Shown here: positions 3,781 through 34,326 of the stretch, piece by piece
Layout of the letters: every line of letters begins with the position of its first letter
How positions within the stretch are numbered: the stretch's first letter is position 1
NCBI GenBank assembly: GCA_003990765.1
Contig: RBNJ01000261.1
Coordinates: 1-35,077 of the forward strand
DNA from: Jimgerdemannia flammicorona
Lineage: Eukaryota
DNA length: 35,077 nt
Direction of reading: 5' to 3'
Notes under the pieces: generated by a model
What the model was told of the DNA's origin: nothing
Databases searched by the model: none
The model's input: only the letters and a program-made list of their open reading frames with translations
Made by a program: the position numbers and the translations under genes

Positions 3781-4631
3781 AACTCAGAATGCTACTCAGT
3801 AATTTAAATATGCTTTCCTAAAGTTCTGTATGCCAAAGTTGGCTCCAAGTACTGTAAGTTGTTGCATTTTGGCTGAGGATGCCGTTTTGATTTTGTTGCA
3901 ATATGTCGGGGTTCGGGACTAAAGCATTTTCTGGACAGTGCACTTGTAGGTGGGATGACATATTCAGGTGACGTTAACTGGCCGTCGATCTGATGTATAT
4001 AATTATATAGATGGGAGGCAAATTGTGCCATCATTCCACAACGTTAAATTGGACATATCACTAGGCATGTGCCTTGGTTTCCTTGGAAACACAAGCTACC
4101 AATTGCATGCCTGATTGGGATACACAATGACAATCGGGATCGACCTGAAAAAGACGGACCTGGCGAGTCGTTGTCAAATGCATGCTTGATTTGAGAACAC
4201 CCATACGCCCACACACCCACACTCGCAAACATGTGAATATCCTTGTCAAAGGATACCAATAGTGACAACCCCAAAGATATCAGTGTCCGTGTCAGGGTTT
4301 CTGCCACTGATGATCCCCTGGCTCGACTCATTGAAAGTCATTCTTTCAACCTTCAAGATATTCAAGAGGGTCGATTCATCACCATCGATGTCTTCAATGA
4401 AAAACCCAAGTCTGCAGACCTTAGAAAATACAGGAAAAGGTTGTTCTGGGCTCTCTTTTCGCAAGACGAATCCAGTTCCGCTTGGTGCCTGCTGCAGGAT
4501 ATATTATTAATTTGCTCTAAGCGTTGGATCTTCCTCGAGCTCAACGGTGACCACGACCTAGACGTCATCCCCTGAGAGTATGTGTGGGGCAACAATGCAT
4601 ATCTGACCAGCCAATGCATGTTCGTATGCCT

Positions 4632-5560
4632 GCACAATTCAAAGGGGCCTCAGATATCGAGCAATCCGAAGGAGCCTCAGACATTGCACAATCTGAAGGT
4701 CCCTCAGATATCGCACAATCCGAAGGGGCACCAGGCATCACACAATCCGAAGGTCCCTCATACATCACATAATCCGAAGGTCCCTCATACATCACATAAT
4801 CCGAAGGTCTCTCAGACATTGCACAATCTGAAGGGGCCCTAGGCATTACACAATCCAATGGTCCCTCCGCTGAAGGGGTACTAAACATCACGTAATCCGA
4901 AGGGTCTGAGTCATCACACAGTCCGAAGGGGTCCCAGGTATCACGCAATCCAAAGATCCCTCAGCCATTGCACAATCCGAAGAGGTCCCAGACATCGCGC
5001 AATCCGAAGGTATCTGAGCCATCACATAGTCTGAAGGGGCCTCAGCCATCCTGCAATCTGAGGGCATCTGAGCCATCATACAGTCCGAAGGGACCTCAGT
5101 AGTGCTCCCAAATGAATCAAATTAATTTGAATCAAATTGAATTGGGGTTGATTCAAATAAAATCAAATTGATATTTCAATTCAAATTAATTTGAGTTTGA
5201 ATCAAATTAGAGGAGGTCTGATTCAATTTAATTCAATCAAATTGATATCTGATTTGATTTGAAATTTTTATCCCAAATTCAAAATATAATAACTCAATGA
5301 AAACACATCCAAATTTAATATTCTTTAGTTTGCTGGATTTGCTTTAATAAAGAGTATCTAACAAACTAAAATTCATTTAAATTTAGATATTTTTTGTTTG
5401 AGTTATTGATTCAAATCAAATTAGCCCTAAATTTGATTTGAATATTTGAATTGGGGTCAAATTTGATTCAATTCAATTCGTTCTAAGCACTAGACCTCAG
5501 TCATTGCACAATCCAAAGGGGTCTCAGCCACCACACAATCTAAAGGGACCTCAGCCATTG
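4632..5560 (+). repeat. 27-bp tandem repeat (~19 units) inside the CHAT coding region, split by a MITE
   Basis: The unit is approximately CACAATCCGAAGGGGCCTCAGACATCG and reads HNPKGPQ(T/I)(S/L) in the CHAT frame. About 17 units precede 5100 and about 2 follow 5500. Confidence 0.9.
5100..5492. mobile_element. Non-autonomous hAT-type DNA transposon (MITE), copy 1
   Basis: Termini are TAGTGCT...AGCACTA with longer imperfect TIRs and subterminal AATTGAAT/TCAAATT repeats. A perfect 8-bp TSD GACCTCAG lies at 5092-5099 and 5493-5500. Confidence 0.9.
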
Positions 5561-8029
5561 AAGCTTCTGCACATCTTCAATGTTGTTCCGGACCCCATTG
5601 TTCTGCTGAATGATGCAATTTCCGGATCTGCATCTGAACGATCAGTTTCAGACAATATGTGATAAGTATGAGAAAATCAATCGAACTGTATTTCTGTAGT
5701 GTGTGTTCTCTCCTACGGTCGAGCGAATGTATGAACTGCTTAGGGACAAGCTGGAGATGGCCACGGTGCTTCATTTCATGGGACATTGCAGCTCGCAGAA
5801 TGGTGGTGTGAAGGCACTCATCTTTGAAGATTATGACACAGAGTCTCACCTTTGCTGACACGTTGCGCCTTGACACGACCATGAATCTGCGGCTGGCTTT
5901 TCTGCCTGCGATACTCGCCATGTTGCCCGGGACCTGATCGAAAACGGCATTCCATACACCATCGGTTCACACTGTCCTCTGCCAGACAACCTCGTCCGCA
6001 AGTTCGAGTCCAAATTCTATCAGTGCCTTGCCAGTGGCTACACGATCGAGACGGCGATGTTGGAGGTGTGCGCCTTCATGAAAGACCCAAAAGACATCTG
6101 ACAACGCAACTACTTCCCCGGTGCCATGGTGCTTTGTCCACATTTCATAAAGAAGACGGCACATTCAAGTGCGAGGAAGGAAAGCCCATGATCGAAAAGC
6201 ATATACCCCCCCACAATCTCGGAGAGATCTCCTTCATGAGATTTTTTTGCGGGCGCAAGGGGGAACTTATCGAGATAGCCGGTGTTTTGAGATGTATGGC
6301 GAAGAGAGGGACACAGACCTGTCCCTTATACACCATTGAAGGCATTGCCGGTCAGGGCAAGACGGCGTTGGCTGAGAAGGCAGTCAGGTAGATGGCGCAT
6401 CTCTTCCCTAGTGGCATCTTCGCTTGGCGGTTCGATCCTTCACACGCAGTATCGGCCATGAAATATCTTCAACACCTGAATAAGGTCATATTCGACGAAG
6501 AATTTGGCTTGGAACAGACCATCACCAAGAAATTTGAGTCCCATTCGACGAGTTTGCTTATCCTCGATCAAGCCAATGTCTTGAAGGACACCGTAAAGTT
6601 GGTAGACTGGCTTGCTTCAGAAGATTATGTCAATACCAGAAATCGCAGTAAGAATTCTTGTCACATCAACCTCTAGAGTGGGACACACGATACATCTCAA
6701 TGGTTTGACTAATTCGGACATTGACAGCAGGGTCGAGTTGTTCATTGGAAAACTTGACGCTCAAGTAAGGCGGAGGATGACGAACGAGACAAATATCACA
6801 CAGTTGCTCCACGACCTCGTCAGGCTTGTAAACGGATATCCACTGTGTCTGGAATCTCTTGTCCATGCAGCTGGCTTACTACAACATCGCAATGCATCAC
6901 TTGAGGAGCATCTCAATGTAATACTAGTTATGGAAAGAGAAACCTTGGAACCCGTTTCTGGCCAACCATCGACATGCTTCCAACACAACAACGTCTGCTA
7001 CTCTATATGTATTCTCTCTTCACTGGACCAATCACAGAAGGGGTGCTCGCGTTCATATATAATTTTGTCGACTTCGTATATTCGTCATCGGAGAAGGTCA
7101 ATTATAGTGATGAGAACCTGCAGCAACTATGCGATAGCAAGTTATTGTTGAAAAAGGACGATGAATACAAGATTCACGTCGCTGTTAGGGAAGGTGTGAG
7201 ACAGTAATTTTGCACATATGCTGATACATTAGTAATTGGCATTGCCAAGGCATCTAATCATGGTGAATAATGCAACTGAAATATGGTCTTTTTTTTTCCT
7301 TTATACATCTTTTTTTTTATTTTTCACCACAGGAATTTCCTTGGTGCTTGAATGGCAACTCATAATGAAGTGAGGAGCAGTACTTATGACATACAATATT
7401 ACGACATTGTTGACATTCTTGGCACCAGTGGCTATAAACTCGAAAAGAGCAGCGTGCAGCAGCACGTATTATTTGGTGGATTGATAGTGTTCAGACGTAA
7501 AGTATCCGAAATTCTTCACGCTAACTTTCCTGAGTTCTGCATGGAACACATCATACTGCTTGTGACAGAAAGCAAATCGCTGTTCATTTCATGTTTGCAT
7601 CATACCGATGCTGAGCTCGCTGAACGGTCTACTACCAATGCCGAAAAGAATATGGGTCTGATGAAGAAAGCCATGGAGACGTTGCAATCTGGTCTAGAGA
7701 AGATGCACTTTAAAATTAGGACAGAATCTCCTCCCAGTAAGTTGTCATCTCATCTACTCCCTGAGTAGTGATTGCTAGAAACACTCCAAACTCACAATAT
7801 CATCGTCGAACTGCTTATTTCATTACACAAACTGATAGAAATTGTCCTCGGAAAAGAGCAGTTCTCAAATACTTTGTAAGGTGAGCGGAAATTTTGGTAT
7901 AATAATGTGAAAAGGGGAAACTAATAGGAATCACTCACTGACAAAAACGCTTTCCATTAACCAATACAAAGTGAGCAAGGAGAATCAACCAACAATTAAG
8001 GTTGATTTCGGCATGGAAAATTTGTTGGA

Positions 8030-9705
8030 CGCCAGCATGACCTTGGCCACGTTGAATCTCGAAGATATGTCGGGACTGTGTGAAGCATTGTGTGTGACTA
8101 TGCAATGGAACCAAGTTCACGATCTATGTGTGTCCACTCATATATCTTCTGTTCACAGCATTGGTCACGAGGGGCATGCATCCTAACCGAGACTCTGAAG
8201 CAAAACAAGGCTTTGACCATGTTGAGTCTTGGAAGTACATTGTAACTGTGTGAATAATTGTATATAGCTGCACAATAGAAACAAGCTCACAATCTGTGTG
8301 TATTCACTTAATAATCTTGCTCATGTTCAGGGAACAGGATCAGTGACGAGGGGGCATGTGTCCTAGCTAATTCTGTGAAGCAGAACACGACCTTGACCAC
8401 ACTGAATCTCTAAGATATGTCAAAACTGTGAATATTTGTGTACAGCTGTGCAATGGAACCAAGTTTACAATCTATGTGTGTTCGCTCATCTGTCTCCTGT
8501 TCATTTTCAGACAATAGCATCAGCATGCACCCTAGCAGAGCCTCTGAACCAAAATGTGACCTTGACCACATTGATTCTTCACAGTATGTCAGAGCTGTGT
8601 GAAGTATCATGCCTGGATGCATGTTGGAATCAAGCTCACAATAGGTAACAGTATCGGCCACGAGGAGGTACATATGTGCCCTAGCTGAGTTTCTGAAGCA
8701 CAACATGACCTTGACTATGTTGAATCCGGGATGTATGTCAGAACTGTGTGAATCATTGTATATAGCTGCACAATGTAATCATGCTCACGATCTGTGCATC
8801 TTTGCTCATCCATCCCCTGTTCACATTCAGGGAATAGGATCACCAACAAAGAGGTACACACCCTAGCCGAGTCTCTGAAGCAGAACATGACCTTGACTAA
8901 GTGGAATTTCAGAACTGTGTATTGAATTAAGCCCACGATCTGTGCGTGTTCACTCATTCACCATTTTCATGTTCAGGAAACAGGATCTGCGATGAGGAGA
9001 CATACACCTTAGTCGAGTCTCTGAAACAGAACATAACCTTGATCACTTTGAATTTCGAATGTACATATGTCGGAACTATGCAAGGCATTGTATGCAACTG
9101 TATAATAGAATCAAGCTCATGATCTGTGTGTATTTGCTCATCTATCTTCTGTTTATATTCAGGGAAGAGCATCGATGGCCAGCAGGTACACTCTCTAGCT
9201 GAATCCTGATGCAGAACACGACCTTGACCATGCTGAATCTCAGAGGTATGTCGGGACTGTGTGAAGCATTGTATGCGGTTGGATCTATGCGTGTTCGCCA
9301 TCTATCCATGTTGTGCATCTGTGCAATAGAATCGAGCTCACGATCTGTGCACATTTGCTCATCTATCTCTGTTCATGTTCAGTCAACAACATCGGCGACG
9401 AGGGGGCATAATTACATCCTAACGGAATCTCTGAAGCAGAACATGATCTTGACCGAGCTGCAGAACTGTGTGAAACATTGTATGCAGTGCAATGGAATCA
9501 AACTCGCAATCTATGTGTATTCGCTCATCCATCCCCTGTTCATTTTCAGGCAATAACATTGGCCATGATGGAAAACTGAGATTCTAAGGTATTTTTGAAC
9601 TGTGAGCTATTAGATGTAGCTGCAAGATGGAACCAAGTTCACAATCTGTACATATTCACTCATTCTCTTTTCATCTTCAGGTAGTATCAGTAAGATGATA
9701 GCTGA
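8030..9705 (+). repeat. Tandem exon-intron array of ~10 RI-type LRR units (~170-180 bp period)
   Basis: Recurring exons of about 84 nt encode variants of NxIGDEGAxxLAESLKQNTTLTTLNL (e.g. ~8331-8413). They are separated by mutually similar introns (GTATGTC...CTGTTCATxTTCAG), some with mutated donors. Confidence 0.85.
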
Positions 9706-10132
9706 CCTATATAATCAAAATATTGAAAGTAGATAGGTTTCTTATTTTCAAACTTAAATGTTATATTAGATAATTGATCAAACTTTATTAAAATATCTGA
9801 AGATATTTTGAGAAATATAAAATATATTTATACTTTTATAACTACTATAATATTAATTATATATCAGAATTATGTAAAATATTTATAATATAATTTTATT
9901 TATAACTTGAGTATACTTATCTCTCTTTAATTTTTAAAAAAATAGCTTTTATTATAAGAGATATATACTTTAACTAAGTCTTTAAAATAAATTATAATTT
10001 TAGCTAAAATAAATATCTATATATTAGAATTATAAAATATTTTATATAATTATATTTTTTATATATTTATTTTATAAATATAACTTTACTATTTTAATAT
10101 TATAATTAATTAAATAATTATATTATAAAAAC

Positions 10133-10454
10133 TAATACTCTCAAATAAATCAAATCAAATTAAATCAAATTGAATTAGAGTTTGAATTGAATTGAGGTCT
10201 GATTTAATTTAAATTTTTATCTCAACTTTAAAATATAATAACTTAATAAAAACACATCTAAATTTAATATTCTTTATTATACTATATTTACTATAATAAG
10301 ATATATATATCTAATAAGCTAATATTTATTAAATTTAGATATATTTTGGTCAAGTTATTGAATTTTGAAAAATTAGATTCAAATTGAATTAGATTAGTCC
10401 TTAATTCTCAAATTGAGACCAAATTTAATTAGATTCAATTCATTTTAAATACTA
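10133..10454. mobile_element. hAT-type MITE, copy 2
   Basis: Homologous to 5100-5492, with transition-mutated termini TAATACT...AATACTA. A perfect 8-bp TSD ATAAAAAC lies at 10125-10132 and 10455-10462. Confidence 0.85.
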
Positions 10455-11014
10455 ATAAAAACTTTTATTATATTATTATTATTTTTTAAAATTAATATAA
10501 TAGCTAAGATTAGAGTTTAAATTATATTATTTTACTTATTTTTATTATAATAATAATATTTTAACTAAAATCTTTAAAATTATCTTTAAAGTTAAAAAAA
10601 AAACAAAAACAAAAAAAAAAACTTTACTATTAAAATATATTATTGATTAATTAATTTCTTATTTTTTTTTTTCTTTTTTTTATTAATTTATTTTAAATTT
10701 TATAATACCATTATATTATTCACATTTCAACTTAATCTTTATTATAATAAATTTTAAACTATAATCATTTTTCAATATCACATTCATTCCCACCACCAAT
10801 ACCAACACAAAACATTCATTCCCACCACCCTACACGAGTGCAAATATCCCAGACTGCAAAACCCACAAGGGGTCTCCTAACTCGAGGATCATGTCCAAGA
10901 TGCTCTTAAGCCCGCCTCTGGCGAGTCAGGGTGGGACGTTGGAGGCCGGCCGGTGGTGACGGCGAAGCAATGGGACAGACGGCGGCGAAGTAATGGGACA
11001 GGCGGCGGGCGTGC

Positions 11015-12890
11015 TCATTTGCCAACGTTCTCCTGACTCGAGATCATCTCCGCAATGTTTTTTTGCAGCTGGTTCCACTCGTCATCTTTGGGGATCGCCA
11101 TCTAATGGATTAGGTAGAACCGATCACAGAATGATAAGTTCCTCATTTCCCGAATCCGCAGAATATCATCACAATAATACAGATTGACTCACCTCGCCGA
11201 TATCATAGACATAAACCTTGCCGTCGCTGGATCCGATCGCTGTCTTCTTACCCTCCTTGTCCCAGTTGATCTTGTTAAGCGCCTTGCCCTGGCCCACCGG
11301 GGTGCTGACAATTGGAATCTGGGAGATTGTTCGGGGTTGGGTGAGGGTGAATCGGGAAAGAATATTATGATATCGTAGCATGCAATCGCATTCAAAACTA
11401 CCCGCTTTCAATCATCACAAACCCAAGCCTCATATCACTTGCCCTAAACATACCTCAGTATCGGCGTTCAAATTCCACAAATCAAACTTGCCCCCTCCGT
11501 CAACGGCGCCGAAGAGGGCCGGGTGTGTGGGCGACCACTTGACGTCGTACACGTAGTCGTCCGCTTGCTCGAACGAGTAGAGCGGCGCGATGATCGTCGG
11601 TTGTGTCGACGGCTTGGCGATAGACTGCAGGTGGTGGGGATGGTGGGGGCGTGCGTTGATATTAGTCCAGAAAAAAAAAAAAAAAAAGTTCCAAACTTTC
11701 ACGATTCACCATTATCCGTTCAGGCCCACCGAACCTTAACTCACCCTCGCCCTCCACAACTTGACGGTCCAGTCGACCGAACAGGTGAGAAACAGGTCCG
11801 AGAAGTCGACTTGCCCCAAAAGAGGATGGAACTGCATGCCCGTGATCGTGCCGTAATGGCCCTTGTAGGTGTCGTACTGGTTGATGCCGGCCTTGCTGTT
11901 GGTACGTGACGGAGGGCAATAATGGAATTGGGTGAGATAACATCGAAACGCAATAACTGTCGCGTAAGAATCCTTGGTAATGTATACACCACCCTTTTTG
12001 CACCCAAAATTATCTCTAACACCACTCCTACAGCTCGCCGCTCCTCCAAAATTGGATCATCTAAACTATTCCCTGGAGAAAAAAAATTGTTATAAAAAAA
12101 GGCTCGTCTCACAAACTCACCTTCCAGCCCTGCCATACCGATTCGCTTGATACACACTCCCTTCCTCCGTCCCAACCCAAAATGTGGTGGTCTCATTATC
12201 CGGGAAATCGAGAGTCGTGATCGACACCTCCTCGATATTGTGATGGTGTAAGGGATGCGACAGCTCGAGTGAGTCCTGCGGCTGCGCCAACATGTCCAGT
12301 TGCCAACTGCATACGGTCCCGTCCGTGCTAGCGGAGATGAGGTTGTGTGCGTTCTGCGTGCCGACCATGGTGAGCGAGTACACCGGATGCGTATGCCCAC
12401 CCGCCGATAGGGGGGTCTTGAGCACGGGAAGAGCCTTCGCGCGCGTGTCCCACAGGACGATCTGGCCCGAGTAAGTGCCGCCAATGACATAGTTGCGGTG
12501 GAAGTCCGAGAACATAACTGCCAGGACGTCGGATTGCGAGTGGAAGACGAATTCGGGACGTTCGAGGAGGTGGAGATTCCAGATGCAGGCCACGCCGTCG
12601 GGTTCGTTGACCGCCATAGGGTTCTTGTTGTAGGAAGCGACGAGGAGTTCGGGGTCCTGTCGTACGTCGGGGAAAGGAGTATAAAGTAAGACCAATGATA
12701 CTAATTGATTGAGAAACTGGGGTTGTTCAAAGGATGTATACCTTGGGCGACCACCCGACGTCGGTAACAGACCTGTTCTTGGACCACTTCTCGTCCCAGA
12801 ACTCGCAAAGGAACTTGACACGCTTGCCGGAAGCGACGTCGCTATACAATTGTGCAATCGTGTAAAACGCGTGAGTTGAAATCCCCCACC

Positions 12891-12935
<45 letters not shown>

Positions 12936-18753: not shown

Positions 18754-18788
<35 letters not shown>

Positions 18789-18817
18789 TTTTTATTTTAG
18801 ATTCCTCCGACCACTTT
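18739..18817 (-). mobile_element. Very short poly(A)-tailed insertion with a 20-bp target-site duplication
   Basis: TAGATTCCTCCGACCACTTT occurs at 18739-18758 and 18798-18817, flanking a long T run plus ATATTTTTATTT. Confidence 0.75.
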
Positions 18818-21332: not shown

Positions 21333-23551
21333 ATGAAGACATCCACCGTAGCTCTCATTGCTGTCGGCGCTGTCGTTACGGTTGGTATCGGCTATGCAAT
21401 CTACTTCGACCAGAAGAGGAGAAACGATCCAGAATTCCGGAAGAGGCTAAGTACGGTCGCCCCCAAAACCCCGCCAGCAACCTTCGCGTTTGAAAACCAC
21501 CATGTCTGAGCTTCCCCTGTATCTCGGTGCCGCACCCTCATCCAGAGCGTGAACGCAAGCGCCTCCTCAAGGTCAAGAAGAGCGAAGAGGAAGCCTTCAA
21601 GAATAAGGCGGCTGAGTCCATTAGTCAAGCCCTCGACGAAATCGCCAACGAAACTTTCCCTGTTACCAACCAAGACAAAGAAAAACTCTTCGTCGAAGAG
21701 GTCGCAAAGGGCGAGGAACTGGCCGCGCGGGGTAGGTGGACATACTATCCTGGATTTTGGTTCTTCGCTTCTCGGCTTACGGTGCTTTTTTATTTGGAAT
21801 CTAATTAATGTCCCGTAATTGAGCGGTTCTCTTAACTTGTTACTCCGACACGATTATCTGAACGCTCAATTTCACCGATTTGCGCATGCATCCTTGGTAC
21901 AGGCGAAGAATTCTACAATGAAGCTGCCGTGAGCTTCTTCCGCGCACTCAAGGTGTATCCCTCCCCCGTCGAACTCGTCATGATCTATCAAAAGACCGTT
22001 CCGGAGCCCGTGTTCAACCTTGTCATGGCGATGATGAGCCTTGATGTGAGTTTGTTTGATTTTGCGGTTGGTCGCAATCATGCTATACATATTAGTATTG
22101 TGAGACAACGTGGAATGGAATTGCCTGTAGACACACGCATTTCAAATGAATCTATTCTGACATGGAATGGGGATACCCCCCCCCCTTTTTTTTTTTCGAA
22201 AAAAATAAAAATAAAATAAAATAAATACAGGTGAAACGCAAACAAGAACTTTATTACAAAGTTTACCCACCCGCCGAAATGAACGTCCGGATAGACGAGC
22301 TGCCCGAGGGGGTCACGGATGACGGCAAGCAGATTATCCGTCGGGGTTTGGTGGCCACACGTGATTTCGACGAGGGAGAAGTGATTTACACCGAGATTCC
22401 TGTTGTTTCGGCGCTTGAGCCCGCGTTGGAGGTTAGTGTGACACACGCCAGCATGTAAAAATGATCCGGGACATTCACGATGGCCGAGAAAACAGGGGTT
22501 TCGGCGCGCGGGGATATCGTTATGTTGGACATCGTTCGGAGGTTGGATTTGACTTAACCATTTATTCTCGGTTCACATACAGGGTCAAGACTTCTGCAAT
22601 TTCTGCCTGAAACAAATCCCAGCCTCTGAATCCACAGTCACTTGCTCCATAGGCTGTGAAAAGGTCGTCTACTGCTCCACCGACTGCGAAAAAAAGGCGG
22701 TCGCACAATATCATCAATACCTTTGTACATCCTCTCTATCTCTTAGCTCGAAGGAGCACGAGTTTGCGACTTACGCTACCAAAAACAACGTCAAGTATCC
22801 CGGCATGATTGCGCGGTTTCTGGCGACGATGGTGTATGAGGAGACCACCAAAGTCCCCACAGGTCGGGACGACGAATACAATACCTGGGATCATATCGAG
22901 CGGTTGAGGTTCCTCGAAGTAAACCCAGGTCCGACGGAGGCGTTAGAGATCAAGTTACTGAAAGAGCTGTTGGGACCCAAGGTGCCTGGCATTGATGAGT
23001 TTGTGACAGAAGAGAGGTATCTAACATTAAAGGGAAAGTTGCAATATAATGCATATGGAGTTGAGACGGTGGCAGAGGGCGAGAAAACAGTTCCGGTAAG
23101 ACGTTATTGAAATTCATCTTCATGATGGCGTGTATCGTTTAATTACTGAAGATGTCGCATAAATGTTACATTTTCATCTCACATTCACTGCCAATCCCAT
23201 TTATTCCAGAAATCCCCCGAACAACACCGTAACGCACGTTCCACCTCCCCGGCACACCCGCTCACCGGCGCTGCCCTCTATCGTGCCACCTCGTACCTAG
23301 CGCACTCGTGCGAGCCCAACACGGCGGTCTCGTTCCCGCGGCGCACACAGGAGCTCGCGCTAGTGGCGACCCGCCCCATCAAGCAGGGCGAGGAGCTGAC
23401 GACGAGCTACGTCCAAGTTGACTCCGACGGGGAGCCGGTGCGCGGTCATGTTGAGCGCAAGAAGGAGCTTGCAGACGCGTTCAGGTTCAAGTGCGCATGT
23501 AAAAGGTGTGAGAGGGAAGAGGCGGCGGCGGCGTCATCGGATAGAGATTGA
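21333..23551 (+). CDS. TOM20: Mitochondrial import receptor Tom20 (MAS20) fused to a split SET/MYND-like (SMYD-type) domain, 6 exons
   Basis: Tom20 motifs: GYAIYFDQKRRNDPEFRKRL, EEVAKGEEL and FFRALKVYPSPVELVMIYQKTVPEPVF. SET/MYND motifs follow: RGLVATRDFDEGEVI, CNFC...CSIGCEKVVYCSTDC...HQYLC, YLAHSCEPN, GEELTTSYV and FKCACKRC. Approximate exons: 21333-21450, 21547-21731, 21903-22045, 22231-22431, 22583-23095, 23210-23551. Confidence 0.92.
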
Positions 23552-24624
23552 GGGAGCCGGCTGGGTAGGGAGTAGGGTTTGTTGCCATGTCACATATACT
23601 TGACGGCTATTGTGTGGATTCGAAATGGGTGTTAACGGTGCGGGGTCAGGGAGCTGTGGTGCAATAGAGTATCATCTTTCACCTGTGCGAAATTCTTCTG
23701 TTTATCCATTTTGGATTTCTTTTCGTTTTTGGTATTTGTATCTTGATTCTGGTGCAGACTTTTTTAGACATATTCGAATACCTAGTCTCAACATAAGTAC
23801 TCGTATATATATACTCGTTGAAATTTTAAGTGTGCAAGCCACAACAAATTGATGACGTAAGCGCGGTGACGTAAGCATGATATTCTCCCTCCTCTTCTAC
23901 CATAAACCTTTCGAACGGCTCTTGAACTGTCACTACGACAGAGGTTCTCGCAAGATGATTTTCAACGTTGGTGTGATTACCCCGCCTGTATAAGGGACAG
24001 CGCCATAGATGTTTTCGTAGAAGAGATTTGATTAGAAATTTTGGTGAGGGAATAGAATTTTTCTCAGGTAACTGTTTCTGAGGGAAAATGACTCTGCCAA
24101 TAAATTATAAATGCTTTACAACTCATTCATTCTACATGTCGTCCGTTTGGAGATATCAAAGGACAAGTCTGGCCTTTTCGTTTTGCCTTTTACCCTATAC
24201 ATTTTGTAACGTCACAAAGGAGTCTTAAAAACACCTGTCCTATCTTTGAGGTTGTCGCATCAACGACGAGTGGATGCAAATCCCACCGGGACTGGAGAAG
24301 AGAAGCCTTAAAACAAGGAGCTAGGCACGGTGGAATGAGGGCTTTTTTTTTTTTTTTTTTTTTTTTTTTTGCAATGTGCCAAAACAGTTTACTATCACTT
24401 CCGTATTCTAATGATCCAGAGTCATCTACTTGACGTCCCCTTGCCCCCGAACCCCAAACCTAGTTCTCTACCTTCATGTTTCAAGCTAGAACCTCGGTGC
24501 CGCCGTCCCTGCGAGGCCAGATTATGGAGCGCCGTCCCGCAAAGAGTTTGTCCCCACAAAGAGATTCGGCAGCCGCCGTCCTCGGTTAGCTTGGATGCAG
24601 TGGGGGTTGCAATGGCAGAGCAGC

Positions 24625-25203
24625 CCACGCCACACCACCCACAATCTATCACCAAGCCGTCGACGCAACCGACGGCCATCGTGCCGCTCTACTCGTTCGA
24701 GCGGGCGGACGACTACGTGACGTCAAGTGGTCGTCCGCACACCGGCGCCGTCGACGGAGGGGGAAAGTTTGATTTGTGGAATTTGAACGCCGATACTGAG
24801 GTGTATGTTTAGGGCCATGTGATGGGACTAAGGTGGATGTGGGGAGTGAGGTATGGGTTTGTGGCGGATAGATATGAATGCAATTGCATGCTACATGCCA
24901 TAATATTCTTTCCGATTCACCCTCACCCAATCCCCAGATTCCAATCGTCAGCACCGGGCAAGGCACTCAACAAGATTAACTGGGACAAGGAGGGTAAGAC
25001 AACGATCCAACGACGGCAAGGTTTATGTCTATGATATCGGAGAGGTGAGTCAATCTGTATTATTATGATGATATTCTGGGAATGAGGAACTTATCATTCC
25101 GTGATCGGTTCTACCTAATCCATTAGATGGCGATCCCCAAAGCTGACGAGTGGAACCAGCAGCAAAAAAACATTGCGAAGGTGATCTCGAGTCGGGAAAT
25201 GAG
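24625..25203 (+). pseudogene. Duplicated, degenerate 3' end (last three exons with introns) of the dynein intermediate chain gene
   Basis: Reverse-complement match to ~11015-11655 including introns, and homology continues into the 3' UTR. It carries small frameshifting deletions, and the first acceptor CAG appears changed to CAA near 24643. Confidence 0.92.
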
Positions 25204-25764
25204 CACGTCGCCGCTTGTCCCAATACGTCGCCGCCTGTCCCATTGCTTCGCCACCGGCCGGCTCACCAGAGGCGGGCTTAAGTGCATCTTGGACATGACC
25301 CTCGAGCCAGGAAACCCCTTGTGGGTTTTGCAGTCCGGGATATTTGCACTCGTGTAGGATGGTGGGAATGAATGTTTTGTGTTGGTATTTTCATGTTGAG
25401 ATATGTGTATGTGTGGTGGGTGGTATTGTCTTTTTTTTTTTTTTCATAATGAGTAAATTAAATGTGATATTTAAAAATGATTATAGTTTAAAATTTATTA
25501 TAATAAAGATTAAGTTGAAATATGAAAGATATAATGATTTTTAATTTCTAAATTAATAGAAGAAGAAAATTAATTAAATTATTAATTTATAATATATTTT
25601 ATAATATATTAAAATAGTAAGTTGTTTGTTTGTTTGGTTACATATTTTAACCCTAAAGATAATTTTAATGATTTTAATTAAAATATTATTAATATTAAAA
25701 TAAATAATATAATATAATTTAAACTCTAATATAATAGTTATAATATATAAATAATCATTAAAAA

Positions 25765-26134
25765 TAGTGCTCTCAAATAAATTAAATTAATTTAAATTAA
25801 ACCAAATTAGAGTTGATTTAAATCAAATTGAATTAAGGATTTTTCAATTTGAATTGAATTGAGGTCTGACTCAATTTGATTTAAATCAAATTGAGGTTCA
25901 ATTCAATTCAAACTTAAGAGTCAAACTTTTGAAATATAATAACTTAACCAAAATATATCCAAATTTAATAATTTTTATTATACTAGATTCCCCTAGATAA
26001 GATGAATCTAATAAGCTATAATTTATCAAATTTAGATATGTTTTTATCAAGTTATTGAATTTTGAAAATTAAGCTTTGAATTGAAACTCAAATTGAATTA
26101 GATCTTAATTCAATTTAATTTATTCTGAGTACTA
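25765..26134. mobile_element. hAT-type MITE, copy 3
   Basis: Termini TAGTGCT...AGTACTA, homologous to copies 1 and 2. The 8-bp TSD is ATTAAAAA (25757-25764) / ATTAGAAA (26135-26142), differing by one transition. Confidence 0.85.
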
Positions 26135-26567
26135 ATTAGAAAAACTTAATAACTAAATCAAACTCTTAAAAATAATATATTTAAAATATATATTAATAAT
26201 CTAATCTTAGCTATGTATTATATTAACTTTAAAAATTAAAAAAAAAATTATAATAAAATTTTTATTTAGTTAATTATAATATATTATAATAGTAAAGTTA
26301 TATTTATATAATAAGTTTTAATCTTTTTATATAACTATATAAATATTTTATATAGTTCTGATATATATAATTAATATTATATATAATAGTTGTAAAAATG
26401 TATATATTTTATATTTTTCAAAATATCTTCAGATATTTTTTTCAAATTATATAAGAACAGTTCATATATCTTTATTAAATATTAATAAAGTTTGATCAAT
26501 TGTCTAATATAATATTTAAGATCAAAAATAAGAAATCTATCTACTTTCAATATTTTGGTTATATAGG

Positions 26568-28620
26568 TCAGCTATCATCTTGCTGATACTACCACCTGAA
26601 GATGAAAAGAGAATGAGTGAATATGTACAGATTGTGAACTTGGTTCCATCTTGTAGCTATATCAAATAGTTCACAGTTCAGAAATACCTTAGAATTCCAG
26701 CATGGTAAAGGTTGTGTTCTGCTTCCAAGACTCGGCTAGAGCGTGTTTTCCATTGTGGCTAATGTCATTGTCTGAAAATGAACAGGGGATAGATGAGCAA
26801 ACATGCACAGATCGTCATTGCGCAGCTACATACAATGTTTCACACAGTTCTGACATACTGAAGAGTTCCAGCTTGGTCAAGGTCGTGTTCTGCTTCAGGG
26901 ACTCCGCTAGGACGCATGCCCCCTCGTCGCCAATGTTGTTACTGAATATGAACAGGCCGGAAACGGGTTTCAAGGTTTCTCCTTCCATATGAGCCATCCA
27001 CTAGCATTGTATTGAGGTGTTCATGAACGAGTTCCTCAAGCGATGCATTGCGATGTTGTGGTAAGCCAACTGCATGGGCAAGGGATTCCAGACACAGCCC
27101 ATCCACGAGCCTGACGAGGTCGTGGAGCAACTGTGTGGTATTTGTCTTGTTCATCATCCTCCGCCTTACTTGAGCGTCAAGTTTTCCAATGAACAACTCG
27201 ACCCCATTGTCAATGTCTGAATCAGTCAAACCATTGAGATGTATCACGTTCTCCGCTGCATCCCACTCTAGAGGTTGATGTGACGTGGCAAGAATTCTCA
27301 CTGCGATTTCTGGTATCGATATAATCTTCTGAAGCCAGTCTACCAACTTTACGGCGTCCTCATCGCCTCTGACGTGTGCACGCTTCAAGACATCGGCTTG
27401 ATCGAGTATAAGCAAACTTGTCGGATAGGACTCGAATTTCTTGATGATAGCCCGTTCCAACGTGTGAAATTCACCGCCAAATTCTTCGCGGAATATAACT
27501 TGGCTCAGATATTGAAGATATTTAATGGCCGATATTGCGTGCGAAGGATCGAACTGCCAAACGAATATGCTACCGGGGAAGAGATGCGCCATCTGCCTGA
27601 CCGCCTTCTCAGCCAACGCCGTCTTGCCCTGACCGACAATGCCTTCAATGGTGCATATGAGATGAGACTGCATGCCACCATACGTCGCAGAATAGAGTAC
27701 AATTCGACAAGCTCCTTTTTGCGTCTACAAAAAGTGGAAGTTGCGGGGATTGCTTCGAGATTGTGGTGGGGCATATGTAATTCCACTCTGGGCAAACCCT
27801 CCTCACACTTGAATATGCCATAATCTACAAGACGAAGACGAGTAAAGAACCATGGTACCGGGGAGATAGTATTTTTGTCAGATGTCTTTGTGATCATAGA
27901 GAAACACACGCGCCCTCCACATCGCCATCTCCACCGTGAAACCACCGGCGAGGAACTTGTAGAAATTGGATTTGAACTTGCGGGCGAGGTCGCCCGGTAA
28001 CGAACAATACAAACCGATGGTGTGCGGAACACCCTGTTCGAACAGGATCCGGGCGACTTCGCGAGGATCGCAAGCAGACAGGAATGCAAGCCTGCACTAT
28101 TCTGGTTATTCCCAAGAGTTGTGGCAGGTTAACGAATTCCGGCTTACCGGTCTCGGTATGTTCAAAGACTAGTGCTCTCGCACCGTTCTTTGTGTCACAG
28201 TGTCCCATGAAATGAAGTGCCGTAGCTGACTGAGGGTTGTTCATGAGCAATGTGTCCATTCGGCCGACGGTGGGAACACGCGCTCCAATATTACTTTTTT
28301 GTTGTTGAGGTAGTGTTCGTTAATGAAGTTCTGGAATTGATCGCTCAAATGCAGATCTGGGAGGCTAGCATCAACGTCGTCTGGCGGGGAGATAGGGTCC
28401 GGTACGATGGCGACAATGCGCAGCGGAAGATTCGGCAGCTGGAGTCCCTTTGGTTTTTGAACTCTTGCGAACATGCATTGGTGAACCAGATATGCATTGT
28501 TTCCCCACGCATATTCCCAGGGGATGGCGTCGAGGTCATGGTCGCCGTTGAGTTCGAGCAAGACACAACCGGTAGGGTTAGGGGATATTATCTGCTGCAG
28601 TCGCTGCTATGACGTAGATT
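26568..28620 (-). pseudogene. NLR-like pseudogene CHAT + NB-ARC + LRR (copy B, internally deleted)
   Basis: Motifs: LDAIPWEY, HFMGHC (28197-28214), LAFLSAC (Cys codon 28070-28072), GIVGQGKT and LLILDQAD. It then joins directly at ~26955 to the LRR exon NNIGDEGACVLAESLKQNTTLTKLEL. Several frameshifts are present and the 5' limit is uncertain. Confidence 0.85.
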
Positions 28621-29087
28621 CTGTGTGCCCCCTCATTGTCGCACTTTGAATACTTTAACATTTGATATGAGGCTTCTGTTACGGGGGATGAATGTCCTGC
28701 TCCTCACAACACATATAGGTCGTTTGACTCAGACTGGCAGCTGTATGGCCATTCTGAGAAATATGTCGGTGTCTGAAAAAGTCTATCGCCTCTCAAGTCC
28801 CTAATATACGCGGATTCCTCTGATAACGTTTGAATGCAATAGTTCATATCTGCCTTTATTATCTCCCACACTATCTATTATTTATACAACTTTTCCTGAC
28901 TAATATTATGAAATATGCAATGGTCGCCGCGTAAGCCCATAAGGAATGTCAACTGAATACGTGCCTTACATTTTCGGTTTGTAACAGGCAAATTTTTAAT
29001 TTCTTTGGCAAACCTATTTTCTATTGTAATTATATACCAGAATTATATATATATAACTGATTTTACTAAATAGTATATAACTAGATC

Positions 29088-29342
29088 TTTTTTTTTTTTT
29101 TTTTTTTTAACAGACCCAAAGCTCTGTGGAATTTTATTAGAAGAGAACCTAGACTAAATAGGCCAAAAACCTCTCTCATCTCTACCCCAAGTACTACTCT
29201 CCTATTGTTCTTAGACTGTAGAGAGAATCAGCAGTCTCACTATCCCAGTTATATAAGAACAGTGTTTCATATTCTCATCTCAACAATATATAAACCAGAC
29301 TATGGAATTCACTAAAGTTAGATTATCAGTAGAAAACTAAGA
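29088..29342 (-). mobile_element. Probable 5'-truncated poly(A)-tailed retroelement fragment
   Basis: A T run at 29088-29108 is followed by about 235 bp of CpG-free sequence. It is flanked by the imperfect direct repeat AGTATATA..ACT(A/G)GATC (~29072-29087, ~29344-29362). Confidence 0.45.
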
Positions 29343-29362
29343 GAGTATATATATACTGGATC

Positions 29363-31940
29363 TTTTTTTTTTTTTTTTATAGTTACTTGGACTTTGCCAT
29401 TTATTACCAGTCTATACATAAAATTACATTATCTCCTCCCACTACCCAATCTCTATAGGGGAGCCCCCCCCCACCTCTTTATGCTTAAAAATCATCCTAT
29501 CCCCTATGATTCCAACTCTCCCCCCACTCTGTCCATAGATTCTCTTTACTAAATAATACTGCTAACCCTCCTGTAGTCTCCAACCAAGCCACCAGCTCAT
29601 CAGAATATCCTCCATCAATCCTTCCCATCACAACAGTCATACCCCCAGATCCAGATACTTCTCTTTCTCAAAAACAAACAATCAGTAACCTGCTAACCTC
29701 ACTCATATAGCCAGTACTCACTCTAAAGTAAGCCACTCCTTCCCAACCCCTCTCATCAATCTATCCTACAAATTCTCCTACCAACCTCTCACACTATCCC
29801 CCCTCCTCACAATACCCAGTTGTTTTCCAACTACTATCCAGAAGTTACTAAACACTTTGCACTCTCCTAGCCAATGTTCAGGTATCTGTACAAAACTCTC
29901 TTTCTGTCCAATATTGTAACACTCCTTACAGTCAAAGTTTTCTCCTTCTACTAAGTGGCCAGAGTGAAAGTTGAGCATAATATTCCTCTTTAATATATAC
30001 CATCAGATCACTCAATACTTCAATAGCAGCTACTGTCTAACCTCAGCACTCTAGGCCCAGACCCTATTCCAGTCCCACTCTTCTCTGATACCTACTGACT
30101 GCTATTTACTGGGTCATAGATCCTACCCCAATCCCCTCTGATACTCAACTCTATTACCAATATTGAAGTTACTGAGAGAGATACCCTCTAGTAATACTCA
30201 GTCTCATTTCCACATTGCTGAGCCCCAAGGTATTTCTCCTTCATCTCTCTATCAACAAATATCAATATGGTATACCCCATCTATGACTCTCTACTAGAAG
30301 TCCTTAAACTGTATATACTCATTGTTCTGAAGCCCAACTAAGAACAGAAGATCTCTTATAGAGTCTCTTGGTAAGAACCTTATCTTCCAGACCTTCTTCA
30401 TCAGGGGAACCCAGCTGTTACTCCTCAGCTCTATAGTTCTCTTTAGCCACTATACTCTCAGACAGTGCAATCTCTTCAGAAAGTTAACCAGCCCAAGTCT
30501 CCCTCTAGATACTAACAAAGATAAGATTTCCTAGCTAATCTGACTCCTTCTCTCAGTCCAGATCTACCCCTTGGCCAGTTTCAACAGCTGCTTCACCACT
30601 CAGGCTAGGAAGTTTAGATGATAAGCCAAATACTACAACTTCAGCAACCAGTAAGCATTCAAGATGGAAATACACCCTGCCAGAGATAAGTAATAGCCTT
30701 CCCAACTCTATAAGGCCTCCTCCCAGATAAAAACCCACTGCTCTCACTAGATTTTTGGTAAAACTGACCTATACACTGAGAGATAGATGCCCAAGTACCT
30801 TATTGCCTCCCTAGCAGAGACAATTGTTCTGATGACATCTCTCCCACCAGGCTATTACCCAGCACCATTGTTTCACACTTATGCCAATTAAGTTTAGTCC
30901 CAGAATGTACCTCATATCACTCTATAGTCTCCTTGAGTTTCTCAACATCAACTAAGCCTAGACCAACCACCATATCATCTGCAAAGGCACCCACTTTCCA
31001 CTCAATACTGAATATCAAAAGCTCTCCTATCTTTCACTGAATTCTATCCAATAAAGGCTCCAAGGAGAGTGCATACAGAATGGGGGACAGTGGGTCTCCC
31101 TGGAGAACACCTCTGTCTAGAGGGAAAGCCACCCCTTGATATACATTATACATAAGTGCTACTCTGCTCCCTTTCAGTAAGCTGATCATTACTACTTAGA
31201 ACTATTGAGAGATGCCAATCTGATCTAGTATCTTTGCCAACCAGACTCTCTGAATATAGTCATATGTCTTTTTCTGATCTAAGAAGACCAGGCACTCATC
31301 TAGTCCACAGGCTCTTGTCTCTTCAATAATACTGTACACCCAAGCTATATCATCCCAAATGAGCCAGCCCCCAATAAAGCCCTGCTACTCCTCCCCTAAG
31401 ACCTGTTGGGCTACCTTCTGCAGTCTTGCTACCACTACCTTAGTGACCAACTTCCTGTCTATGTCCAGTAGCATGATCAGCCTCCAGTTCTTCCAGTCCT
31501 CCCTCCTACTCTTGTTTTTATACAGCAGTATCACCAGCTCCAGATCCTGCTCACCTATCCATCTTCTGGACTATAGTACTAAGTTACAAAGTACTCTCAA
31601 CTCTCTCAGTATACTGGGGATATACACCATCTTCTTCCAGAAATCCCAGAGCAGGCCATTCTCCCCTAGAGTCATACTCAGTATAGTCATAGCAAGAATC
31701 TGGTAAATCTCCTCCTCCTGCACTGGTAACACCAGATCACTCAACTCTTCTGCCTATAGTAGATGCCACTCCTTCAAAGCCTGATCAATGGTGGCAGTAT
31801 CAGCTCCACCCTCCTCCTCACTCTACAAATCACTCCATCTCTTCTTCAATGATCTGAGAATGTCTTATATATTATATACTAATAGTCTCTCAGAATTGAG
31901 AACCCCCTCCCACCTCTGCTGAACCCTCCTTACCCTAAGA
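29363..31940 (-). mobile_element. Decayed non-LTR retrotransposon (LINE, L1/Tx1-like RT), 5'-truncated
   Basis: Poly(A) tail (T run 29363-29378). RT motifs on the minus strand: NWRLIMLLDIDRKLVTK (~31440-31492), GVLQGDPLSPILY (~31073-31111), AFADD (~30974-30988) and YLG (~30789-30797). Many stop codons. Confidence 0.9.
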
Positions 31941-31945
31941 GCTCT

Positions 31946-32309
31946 CATAAGAAACTTAGAGGGCCTCTCTCCTTCTTCCAGCCCCTGCCAATGAAAATGT
32001 AAGAGGGTTGCTTTTTAGAGTAACTGTTACATAGTTCAGGAAGGGTTTTCTGGAAGTTCTGGATATTCTGGAAGACTGTTTTCTTATGGTCAAGATCAAT
32101 TTTGTATGGAGTACATCCTCTACACTTATTGATTTCAAGATCAGGTTGACATCTCAACCAAAGTCCTTTTTCGGACTAGTTCTGGATATTCAGGATTTTC
32201 CATATTTCAGGAAGTTCAAGAAACTAAGACCAGCTTTTGAATCGGCATACTGCTGCAGACAATACCCAATTAGGAAATTTCGTGATAGAGTTAGGAGTGG
32301 GACCTAACA
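31946..32309 (+). mobile_element. Probable solo or partial LTR of a different retrotransposon
   Basis: A noncoding block between the LINE and the chromovirus LTR, with short internal repeats (TTCTGGAAG/TTCTGGATA) and ending ...CCTAACA. The 5' TG end and a TSD were not identified. Confidence 0.4.
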
Positions 32310-33906
32310 GGGAGTGAATTTACTTAAGAGTGGTTTGTGGGTTATTAAATAGGTTTATTCACTATTCATAATATTACTATACTAGGAGTATTTGTGTGAG
32401 GGGATATTGTGGGGAAGTATTCAGGAATGTTCTTGTGTGTTTGAGTCTGAGATTCTGAGGTCTGGGGGAGTAGATATTTATACTAGTGAGGGGCTATCTA
32501 GACTATACTAAATAGGGATGTAGCACTAAGTGCTTTATTGAGTTGGAATGCAGTCACATAGTATAAGTGTGATCTGACATGTCAAGAGATCATCTGACTA
32601 CTGAGTCAGTTCACAGTCATGTCGTATAAGGCTAATCTAACTATACTATGACTGCTAGGCTATTTATAGGTTTAGGCACTGTCTGGATAGTCCTCAATGA
32701 TATCACCATCAATTGCATCATCTCTGATGAAGTAGTCATCCAGGAAAAGTGGTTTGTAGATTACTTCTTCTTGTTCGCTGAGGTAATAATACATTGGAAC
32801 TTTGTCTCTATCTCATAGAATAGCATCATCTGTCTCATAGACTGGATAAGGTGTTGGTGGATGAAGAAGGGGTGCATCATCTTCACTTTCATCAGATTCG
32901 CTATCTGCATACCTTCTGTAGGTTACAGCACTATGAGTCGCAGGGTTATAGTAAGCTGGTGGCTGTGGTTCATATCGCTTATACTTGGGTAGTGGAGTGG
33001 TTGGTTCGATGTCAAGGGTTGTCTGGAGATACAGGTTATGTTCTCTGGTCTCTTCATTGTAGTTGAAGTAATTGGGGGTGAATGCAGGTTGGTATTCATG
33101 CCAGTGGTCATTGTCTTCTGCTTCATCTTTATTGAAGTGGATTATATTGTAGATGTCCTTCATGGCATATCCAACTTGGGGCATTTGTAGGATATGATCA
33201 TTGGGGTGTGGGAAGGTTCTGTCTGTGGTTTCAACATACTCGAGATACTTGTAGTTGAGTTCTTATATCATGTCATCGATTTGGCCATAGGATAGGGTAG
33301 CAATCATTTCGCTGATGATAACTCGGAGGCGGGGAATAATGGTACTATACTCATAAAAGAGTTCTCGATGTTTGCGAGCAATGAGCTTCTGGTGTTGAGA
33401 CATCTCAGTGATGTCTGTATTATGGTAGTGTTTGACCATGTCTTCTAGGAGGTAGCTGATCTGGTAGTAGCTTAAGATTTGTCTAATTCGGTGGGCCTCG
33501 CTAAGCATGTTCAGAGCATTCCAATGGGCTTCCACGAAGTAGAGGGGTGCTAGGCTATGGATATTCATGAGAGGCAGAGGGGGTGTGGCTCAGTTGACAA
33601 TGGCATTCCAAATATCAGCGCAGATGTGGGTATAGATCTTAGTGGTCATGTTTGTATGTTTGGAAGTTGTGGTTGTTATTTTGTTTTAGTTCTCTGATTT
33701 GACGTATTTTGGTGCTCGGTATATATGTATTTGATCCTGATTGGTAAGATTCTATTTATATAGATCTTGTGTTCTGTGACTTTGTATTGACTTAGCTTCA
33801 TGTACTGTGACTTTGGTTTGACTCAGCTTCGTGATCAAGCAGGTGATTTTCAGATTTGTTCAGAGGTCACATGTGATTTCAGTGGCTTGGAGGTTGTATG
33901 CTTACA
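32310..33906 (-). mobile_element. Long (>=1.6 kb) 3' LTR of a Ty3/gypsy chromovirus
   Basis: Begins TGTAAG immediately after a polypurine tract. It has TATAAATA boxes (~33752-33760, ~32661-32668, ~32475-32482) and AATAAA (~32353-32358) on the minus strand. The distal CA end is not seen. Confidence 0.7.
32672..33649 (-). pseudogene. Decayed ~325-codon ORF of unknown function inside the LTR
   Basis: A single frame runs from ATG 33649 to TAA 32672-32674 with no frameshift. It is broken only by TGA 33590-33592, TAA 33263-33265 and TGA 32813-32815. The track ORFs 33263-33568 and 32813-33184 are parts of it. Confidence 0.7.
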
Positions 33907-33920
33907 ACTCTCCCCTTCTT
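33907..33920 (-). other. Polypurine tract (plus-strand primer) of the LTR retrotransposon
   Basis: AAGAAGGGGAGAGT on the minus strand, directly before the LTR start TGTAAG. Confidence 0.75.
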
Positions 33921-34326
33921 AGCTTTCGACGTCCTCATCGGGGCCTTCTAATTTTGTTCTAGTGTTGTTATACTATTTGGGAGATCAAAATTCTGGTAAA
34001 ATCCATTTTTCTCAGAAAGTGGCATGCTTGTAGTACAGTTGCCTAATGCATTGGATTCACATATTAAAGGGTTGTGTATTCAATACCATGCACCGGAAGT
34101 GATTCTGACATCATTTACTGCTGGAGAATTTCCTCTAAGGAATCTTCTTAAATGTCTACACCTTGTTTCCCACCAGTGGTACAGGGAGAATAGGCTTGCT
34201 TTCAGTTTTGCTATTTTTCCAGAGGTTTGGTATTCTTGTCTTGTTTTACTGAGTTCTTGGTTTACGATAATTAATATTCAAGAGATATAATATATAGTAT
34301 ATATGGATAGGTGTGGGGTATTGGTT

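Follow-up and report, generated by a model that had tools for sequence, protein, structure and literature searches.

A tandem array of leucine-rich repeat (LRR) exons on contig RBNJ01000261.1 (positions 1 to 35,077, the whole 35,077-nt stretch analysed here and called the window) raises the question of what kind of gene it belongs to, and whether it still works. In the first-pass annotation, made from the sequence alone, the array had been proposed as a possible module for diversifying a sensor, built from units of about 84-nt LRR exons and similar introns. Our analysis leads us to conclude, with high confidence, that in this array we see the sensor part of a fungal CHAT-NTPase-LRR gene (NTPase, nucleoside triphosphatase), now dead, which was built from exon-plus-intron cassettes, duplicated in inverted orientation and then decayed.

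The array was cut at its conserved TTCAG acceptors and the pieces were aligned with both pieces of an inverted second copy, giving 12 units. Copy A, at 7972-9680 on the forward strand, holds ten of them in tandem (A0 to A9, from sequence reading and unit alignment), with A0 starting at 7990/7972; copy B, at 26941-26596 on the reverse strand, holds two (B1 from 26941 and B2 from 26771) and, at the end, a further exon-like piece, in agreement with the about ten and two to three units counted earlier. The units are laid out as follows:

7972..8157, forward: A0, a 93-nt first LRR-like exon (7972-8064) and its intron, donor changed to AT
8158..8330, forward: A1, a 77-nt exon (net -7, frameshift) and a 96-nt intron
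8331..8510, forward: A2, an 84-nt exon whose last codon is an in-frame TAA, donor changed to AT
8511..8646, forward: A3, a 73-nt exon (net -11), intron shortened to 63 nt and lacking its acceptor
8647..8830, forward: A4, an 86-nt exon (net +2, frameshift) with no preceding acceptor
8831..8976, forward: A5, donor and 3' end of the exon deleted
8977..9162, forward: A6, the sole lesion-free unit of copy A, with an open 84-nt exon, AG acceptor and GT donor
9163..9382, forward: A7, a 1-nt deletion in the exon (frameshift) and an internal intron duplication of about 41 nt
9383..9549, forward: A8, +4/-10 nt, a stop in the naive reading, donor deleted; pairs with B1
9550..9680, forward: A9, exon cut to 39 nt, ending in TAA; pairs with B2
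9681..9736, forward: terminal exon-like piece with a TAG end, 92-93% like copy B (repeat search)
26772..26941, reverse: B1, an 83-nt exon that abuts NTPase-region coding sequence through a 2,406-bp deletion
26596..26771, reverse: B2, an 84-nt exon whose last codon is TAA, as in A9

The majority consensus unit consists of an 84-nt exon (28 codons) and an intron some 90-97 columns long, which begins with GTATGT and ends in a pyrimidine-rich tract and TTCAG; real unit lengths range from 131 to 220 nt. Every exon border is in phase 1 by homology, with two nucleotides of the split codon at the start of the exon and one at its end, in line with the same-phase exons that the first-pass annotation had supposed. 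The symmetric exon, a multiple of three with equal phase on both sides, is a property of the consensus and is exact in 3 of the 12 units (A2, A6 and B2), the exons of the remaining units measuring 39-86 nt. A profile built from three units (A1, A2 and A4) recovered the other nine at E ≤ 1.6e-13 in the 35,077 bases searched and gave no further match in the whole window; no cassettes lie elsewhere in the window or on the opposite strand, all 12 sitting in the two colinear arrays. An independent repeat search found a 62-nt intron segment in eight copies at 63-82% identity. The array is absent from the output of Tandem Repeats Finder, also at a score of 30, probably because of its many indels.

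Intron columns have a mean identity of about 75% among the units and are conserved at least as well as the exons, which bears out the earlier suggestion that whole exon-plus-intron units were duplicated. Pairwise identity among units is 58-81%, compared with 85% for B1/A8 and 90% for B2/A9, which makes the array much older than the inverted duplication. Since B1 is the colinear counterpart of A8, and B2 of A9, with unit order colinear between copies, mosaicism between the copies, which had been put forward as a sign of exon shuffling, is absent.

The exons encode repeats of the ribonuclease inhibitor (RI) type. The 28-residue RI-type period, LxxLxLxxNxI followed by a G..A..LA helix, is present in a per-codon table of the 12 units and in an alignment of five exon translations. 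Positions N2, I4, L12, L16, N19, L22 and L25 form a framework that is nearly invariant across units in the codon table, positions 5, 9-11, 13, 24 and 26-28 are variable, and the intron border falls between positions 7 and 8 (LxxLxLx/xN, with the slash at the border). Two of the four single exons tried matched Pfam LRR_6 (E 0.002-0.005, 17-18 bits). A profile of the five exon translations had as its best match the LRR region of PDB 5irm/5irl (E 3e-5), followed by a GALA LRR protein (E 5e-5). We take 5irm/5irl, deposited under the name 'Uncharacterized protein', to be rabbit NOD2.

Upstream of the array, on the same strand, lies a P-loop of sequence GQGKT (Walker A), which is present in both copies. 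The surrounding features are:

4210..4677, forward: N-terminal part of the copy A CHAT (caspase-like) region, from tblastn in frame +1, stops at 4234 and 4573
4633..5100, forward: 27-nt minisatellite of about 17 copies inside the copy A CHAT region (repeat search)
5100..5600, forward: AT-rich insert in the copy A CHAT region, GC down to 0.215 (composition, repeats)
5616..6134, forward: C-terminal part of copy A CHAT, with HFMGHC and SAC motifs, frame +3, stops at 5697, 5856, 5871 and 6099
6140..7267, forward: copy A STAND P-loop NTPase (GQGKT) and helical region, frames +2, +3 and +2, stops at 6389 and 7205
7268..7736, forward: linker open reading frame (ORF), homologue-less, in frame +2 like the last NTPase segment (frame reading)
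7737..7971, forward: putative first intron, GTAAGT...AAAG, phase 1, which would join the linker to the LRR frame
26951..28621, reverse: copy B CHAT and STAND NTPase pseudogene, with 8 stops and frameshifted stretches (tblastn)
24630..26595, reverse: rest of the inverted duplication, namely the terminal exon-like piece, an AT-rich spacer and a dynein 3' fragment (24642-25198)

The nature of this upstream region was established through its relatives. An exhaustive search with the better-preserved copy B returned 63 of them, six at E ≤ 1e-30; a word-indexed search of the copy B NTPase ORF against longer proteins gave no match at E ≤ 1e-5. The copy B NTPase matches Pfam AAA_22 (E 9e-6) and NACHT (E 0.004) weakly, both under gathering, and NPHP3_N likewise weakly, and NB-ARC is matched (E 1e-8 to 8e-12) in P0019, P0025 and P0028, which are more remote homologues. 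CHAT (PF12770) is significant, and N-terminal to the NTPase, in 12 of the 15 relatives scanned with Pfam (E 1e-13 to 4e-19 in P0001, P0003, P0005 and P0006); the C-terminal repeats of the scanned relatives are ankyrin (ANK, in P0001), TPR or none. The closest full-length homologues, P0001 and P0184, are CHAT-NTPase-ANK proteins, the next relatives are bacterial-type CHAT-NB-ARC-TPR proteins, one of them named from Oscillochloris, and the closest relatives all come from Logan or JGI contigs. Because tblastn with four homologues (P0001, P0003, P0005 and P0006) covers the upstream region of both copies (A 4210-7267 and B 28621-26951), the locus reads as CHAT, then STAND NTPase, then LRRs.

Whether these parts made up one gene depends on the junction between NTPase and LRRs. 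The LRR units of copy A follow the NTPase on the same strand, and GC content over 7200-8000 is 0.33-0.44, with no AT-rich spacer (intergenic DNA has 0.11-0.19). The frame of the last NTPase segment (+2) stays open to 7736, a GTAAGT donor at 7737 comes after one base of a codon, and from the AG at 7970-7971 a first LRR exon of 93 nt, in phase 1 on both sides, would follow in the proper frame, this frame arithmetic being our own reading of the sequence. The LRRs and the CHAT-NTPase would accordingly have formed one gene, joined by putative splicing. Two unrelated genes, a CHAT-NTPase (pseudo)gene and a separate LRR-only (pseudo)gene, could instead have been neighbours by chance and been duplicated together, which would explain that the LRRs are carried by no NTPase homologue, that the nearest full-length ones have ankyrin repeats instead, and that the linker (7268-7736) matches nothing. 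Such a coincidence appears improbable to us given the shared strand and the lack of an AT-rich intergenic spacer, an NTPase frame that runs open through the linker to a phase-1 donor fitting phase-1 LRR exons, and the homologue P0001, in which the repeats start right after the corresponding region; moreover, swaps of repeat type on one NOD scaffold are usual for fungal NOD-like receptors (NLRs), according to the section of PMC4986451 used here.

The putative single CHAT-NTPase-LRR gene, as found, is broken in both copies. An NTPase, an N-terminal CHAT effector and C-terminal repeats, as expected of an NLR, are all present and an intact ORF is absent; both copies are pseudogenes, and the array is the dead 3' part. 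The upstream region of copy A is read by tblastn in frames +1, +3, +2, +3 and +2, that is, with at least four frame changes, and has eight in-frame stops (only stops supported by two or more of the four query proteins are counted); copy B also has eight stops. In the copy A array, nine of ten LRR units bear disabling lesions, A6 alone being clean: in-frame TAA codons (A2, A8, A9), donors changed to AT (A0, A2) or deleted (A5, A8), a missing acceptor (A3), net indels of -7 (A1), -11 (A3), +2 (A4) and -1 (A7), and a net loss of 45 nt from the A9 exon (53 deleted, 8 inserted).

The deletions in A5 (8910) and A8 (9461) both remove the exon end and the GTATGT donor and both stop at one and the same intron position, just before CAGAACTGTG, a coincidence that suggests recurrent slippage or a deletion hotspot.

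Errors of assembly or sequencing could imitate a pseudogene where the gene is really intact, and the many small indels are indeed typical of uncorrected long reads. Nevertheless, the neighbouring dynein intermediate chain, SET/MYND and TOM20 genes read without such errors, the dynein gene being clean over, for instance, 177 aa (85% identity), with ordinary GT...AG introns some 70-220 nt long; among the lesions are stops created by substitution, GT donors that have disappeared, deletions ranging from 11 to 53 nt, a 27-nt minisatellite and a 2.4-kb deletion; and the copies differ by about 19% in substitutions. We regard this explanation as having almost no chance of being right.

The two copies of the dead gene form the arms of a segmental duplication in inverted orientation (A 4523-11639, B 28569-24630), which also included the 3' end of the adjacent dynein gene. 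Copy B lacks the equivalent of A 6964-9369, a single 2,406-bp deletion whose left end lies in coding sequence after the NTPase domain and whose right end lies 13 nt before an intron end. It has only two units because this deletion removed eight cassettes, and since the ends lie off the cassette borders, the difference of ten versus two did not arise by a precise loss of cassettes. Between the arms there are 198 substitutions over about 1,046 aligned coding bases, comprising 137 transitions (32 at CpG) and 61 transversions; hypermutation resembling repeat-induced point mutation was considered as the cause of decay and rejected on this ordinary spectrum. The ratio of nonsynonymous to synonymous substitution rates (dN/dS) between the copies was as follows:

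NTPase, first segment, 109 codons: 0.57
NTPase, second segment, 104 codons: 0.51
After the NTPase, 16 codons: 0.93
CHAT region, 56 codons: 1.02
CHAT region, 42 codons: 0.19
CHAT N-terminal, 58 codons: 0.70

As far as sequence comparison goes, these values suggest some constraint after the duplication.

Two further insertions mark copy A. The minisatellite at 4633-5100 has 66-77% matches, encodes a 9-residue repeat in one frame and has a diverged copy at 5507-5600; it has no counterpart in copy B, which is contiguous across that point. An AT-rich element is found at 5254-5436 in copy A and in both AT-rich spacers, at 10203-10388 and 25904-26085, with 61-86% identity.

Several observations weigh against the reading of one CHAT-NTPase-LRR gene that decayed after its duplication. 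Splice sites, and with them a transcript that fuses NTPase and LRRs, are deduced from the letters; the three CHAT-region fragments of the window have no Pfam match of their own, the CHAT call coming through homologous proteins; and the single-exon LRR_6 scores stay under the Pfam gathering cut-off of 23.4, as expected for 27 residues. A motif regular expression found an LRR array in none of the 63 NTPase homologues (at most one chance match per protein), and among 69 family proteins none matched past 7267 at E < 0.005, the best match beyond that point, P0057 (E 0.005, 25 bits), being taken as chance among 69 queries. Finally, a TGA is common to both copies (A 6099, B 27880) at an Arg codon conserved in all four homologues. 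The gene may therefore have been dead at the time of duplication, which fits uneasily with dN/dS values below 1; alternatively, the shared stop could come from a parallel CGA-to-TGA change at a CpG.

With 63 homologues lacking LRRs and 69 proteins lacking a match past 7267, the CHAT-NTPase-LRR combination is seen only at this locus. For the repeat-less homologues P0003, P0005, P0185 and P0186 (about 750-810 aa), the gene calls may end at the first intron. A metagenome scan with the family alignment yielded 35 loci, of which only L001 (52%) and L002 (37%) come close, each a short contig that ends without downstream sequence; across the 35 loci, 583,566 nt in total, the unit profile had no matches.

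The question of a working module can then be addressed at the level of selection. Symmetric 84-nt phase-1 exons with homologous introns would allow cassettes to be gained, lost or skipped without a frameshift, and the first-pass annotation had proposed that same-phase cassettes could be skipped, shuffled or changed in number here to alter ligand recognition. Mean column identity over all 12 units is indeed lower in exons than in introns (0.65 vs 0.75, p = 0.004), and 3 of 27 exon codons (repeat positions 28, 5 and 24) fall below the 5th percentile of conservation of intron triplets, where about 1.35 are expected. However, the difference loses significance in the nine core units (0.69 vs 0.76, p = 0.14; without CpG-prone columns 0.74 vs 0.80, p = 0.34); as evidence of diversifying selection, the higher conservation of introns was consequently set aside as a weak hint, being significant only with the divergent end units and due partly to CpG-prone columns. 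Between units, the proportions of nonsynonymous (pN) and synonymous (pS) differences are 0.26 and 0.44 (pN/pS 0.60), intron divergence is 0.25, and 4 of 27 exon codons lie above the 95th percentile of intron-triplet conservation (about 1.35 expected). These signals do not demonstrate diversifying selection; they point to past constraint on the framework and give, at best, a weak hint that some of the variable positions changed faster.

Set against a working module are also the damage to nine of ten copy A cassettes, the eight stops and the frameshifts in the CHAT and NTPase of each copy, a difference in copy number that goes back to one deletion which also took post-NTPase coding sequence, and a colinear unit order with no stray or reverse-strand cassettes in the window. 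Frame-neutral cassettes hold good for the ancestral exons and fail as a functioning device in this pair of pseudogenes; the diversification proposal is largely refuted for this locus by the lesions, and we consider it very unlikely to apply here.

The history that best accounts for the dead CHAT-NTPase-LRR gene can be outlined. The ancestral gene would have had a single long exon, uninterrupted by introns, for an N-terminal CHAT caspase-like protease, a STAND P-loop NTPase and the linker, followed by about ten RI/NOD-type LRRs, each in an 84-nt phase-1/phase-1 exon. The repeat domain would have grown by tandem duplication of a cassette of about 175 bp, exon and intron together, through unequal crossing-over or slippage. 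By analogy with CHAT-bearing NLRs, a ligand on the LRRs would free NTPase-driven oligomerisation, leading to activation of the protease. Later, a segment of at least 7 kb with the gene and the dynein 3' end would have been duplicated and inverted, after which both copies presumably fell into decay and a single deletion of 2.4 kb cost one of them eight cassettes.

This architecture has known counterparts, described here from partial texts of the papers cited. Vertebrate genes of the NOD/NLRC kind (NOD1, NOD2 and NLRC3 type) have one 28-aa RI-type LRR per exon, and the exon border, fixed in the beta-sheet, makes frame-neutral exon skipping possible (Hoss et al., 2019, PMC6642158). The locus resembles them in its RI-type 28-residue repeat, one per exon, in its uniform exon size and frame-neutral removal, in an exon border inside or beside the beta-strand motif, and in an LRR profile that best matches the LRR region of PDB 5irm/5irl. 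It differs in its fungal host, in its effector, which is CHAT and not CARD or PYD, in an NTPase that is NB-ARC-like or an unclassified STAND with no clear NACHT, in introns that are short (about 90 nt) and still alike, and in being dead.

The brown-algal ROCO genes, to which the array had initially been compared, have LRR exons of 72 nt, some of them stray or on the reverse strand, along with pseudogenes and alternative splicing (PMC3341825, PMC11378527). Shared with the locus are constant-length exons of one repeat each with symmetric phase, and families rich in pseudogenes and 'inactivated exons' which, in the portions of these sources drawn upon, are candidate immune receptors. The algal LRRs are, however, of plant type, 72 nt long and in phase 2 on a ROCO GTPase (PMC11378527), whereas here they are 84 nt long, RI-type and in phase 1 on a CHAT-NTPase; additional algal LRR exons lie in introns and on the non-coding strand, with support from expressed sequence tags and alternative splicing, while the locus has no stray or reverse-strand exons and no mosaic order.

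CHAT-bearing NLRs, which combine CHAT with NB-ARC or NACHT and with TPR, ANK or WD40, occur in fungi and bacteria, some of them controlling gasdermins (PMC10197012, PMC12881547). The locus has the same N-terminal CHAT, STAND NTPase and C-terminal repeat sensor, and differs in its LRRs, a repeat type reported in the consulted parts of these two papers as not found in fungal NLRs. With regard to clusters of CHAT-NLR and gasdermin genes, no gasdermin-like neighbour appeared among 10 ORFs scanned with Pfam at 28650-35077, although one may escape Pfam. In the passages of fungal NLR surveys available to us, ANK, TPR, WD40 or HEAT repeats are listed and no LRRs, and NLRs are few or none in Mucorales-type fungi (PMC4986451, PMC12881547, PMC12258605). 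Our literature search for NACHT with LRR in early-diverging fungi found no paper.

The remaining features of the window concern its neighbours, composition and host. A fragment at 24642-25198 beside copy B duplicates the 3' end of the gene for the dynein intermediate chain (11018-11906); this fragment has 39-48% protein identity to P0064, and the intact gene 53-64%. At 21836-23551 there are an apparently intact TOM20/MAS20-like import receptor (E 6e-12) and an apparently intact protein with a MYND finger (E 1e-5) and a SET domain (6e-10). Upstream of copy A the DNA is AT-rich and without long ORFs. In 28650-35077, the 10 ORFs with a length of 70 aa or more, scanned in the search for a gasdermin neighbour, had no Pfam match at E ≤ 0.01, with the proviso that fungal gasdermins may escape Pfam; a 149-aa ORF at 32813-33262 had no Pfam match, and a tRNA scan found none. 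Intergenic blocks reach as low as 11-22% GC, and genes have 45-55%. GC skew lies between -0.48 and -0.34 at 29-32 kb and between +0.19 and +0.28 at 32-35 kb, a flip across 29000-35000 that may reflect two inverted arms of a hypermutated repeat. Homopolymers occur at 12892-12933 (A x42, in an apparent dynein intron), 18756-18798 (T x43) and 24343-24370 (T x28).

The dynein fragment is 80-85% identical to Mucoromycotina, 75-79% to Mortierellomycotina/Glomeromycotina and about 65-80% to Basidiomycota. In a one-gene maximum-likelihood tree, with phylum labels assigned by hand from the listed names, dynein is sister to Mucorales and Umbelopsidales (SH-aLRT 94), on a long branch and with 26% of columns filled. 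Judged by this tree, the host would tentatively be an early-diverging, Mucoromycotina-like fungus.

The gene architecture in the window is of a known kind, here met as a relic in a host and a combination of domains that were not expected, and the locus as it stands is a pair of pseudogenes without present function. This relic shows that the combination of a CHAT-STAND NTPase with NOD-type LRRs arose at least once in fungi, and that its sensor was made by duplication of exon-plus-intron cassettes, a design found in NOD/NLRC genes and analogous to that of brown-algal ROCO genes. That a Mucoromycotina-like lineage has or had true NOD-LRR receptors, and that intact paralogues still vary their sensor through gain, loss and skipping of cassettes, is a possibility that we hold to be rather doubtful. 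Were it true, these receptors would join a CHAT effector to an LRR sensor of the NOD2/NLRC type with 84-nt exons, in the modular gene structure of vertebrate NLRs, and intact paralogues, if they exist, would offer a fungal system in which to test the diversification of recognition by exon-modular LRR arrays.

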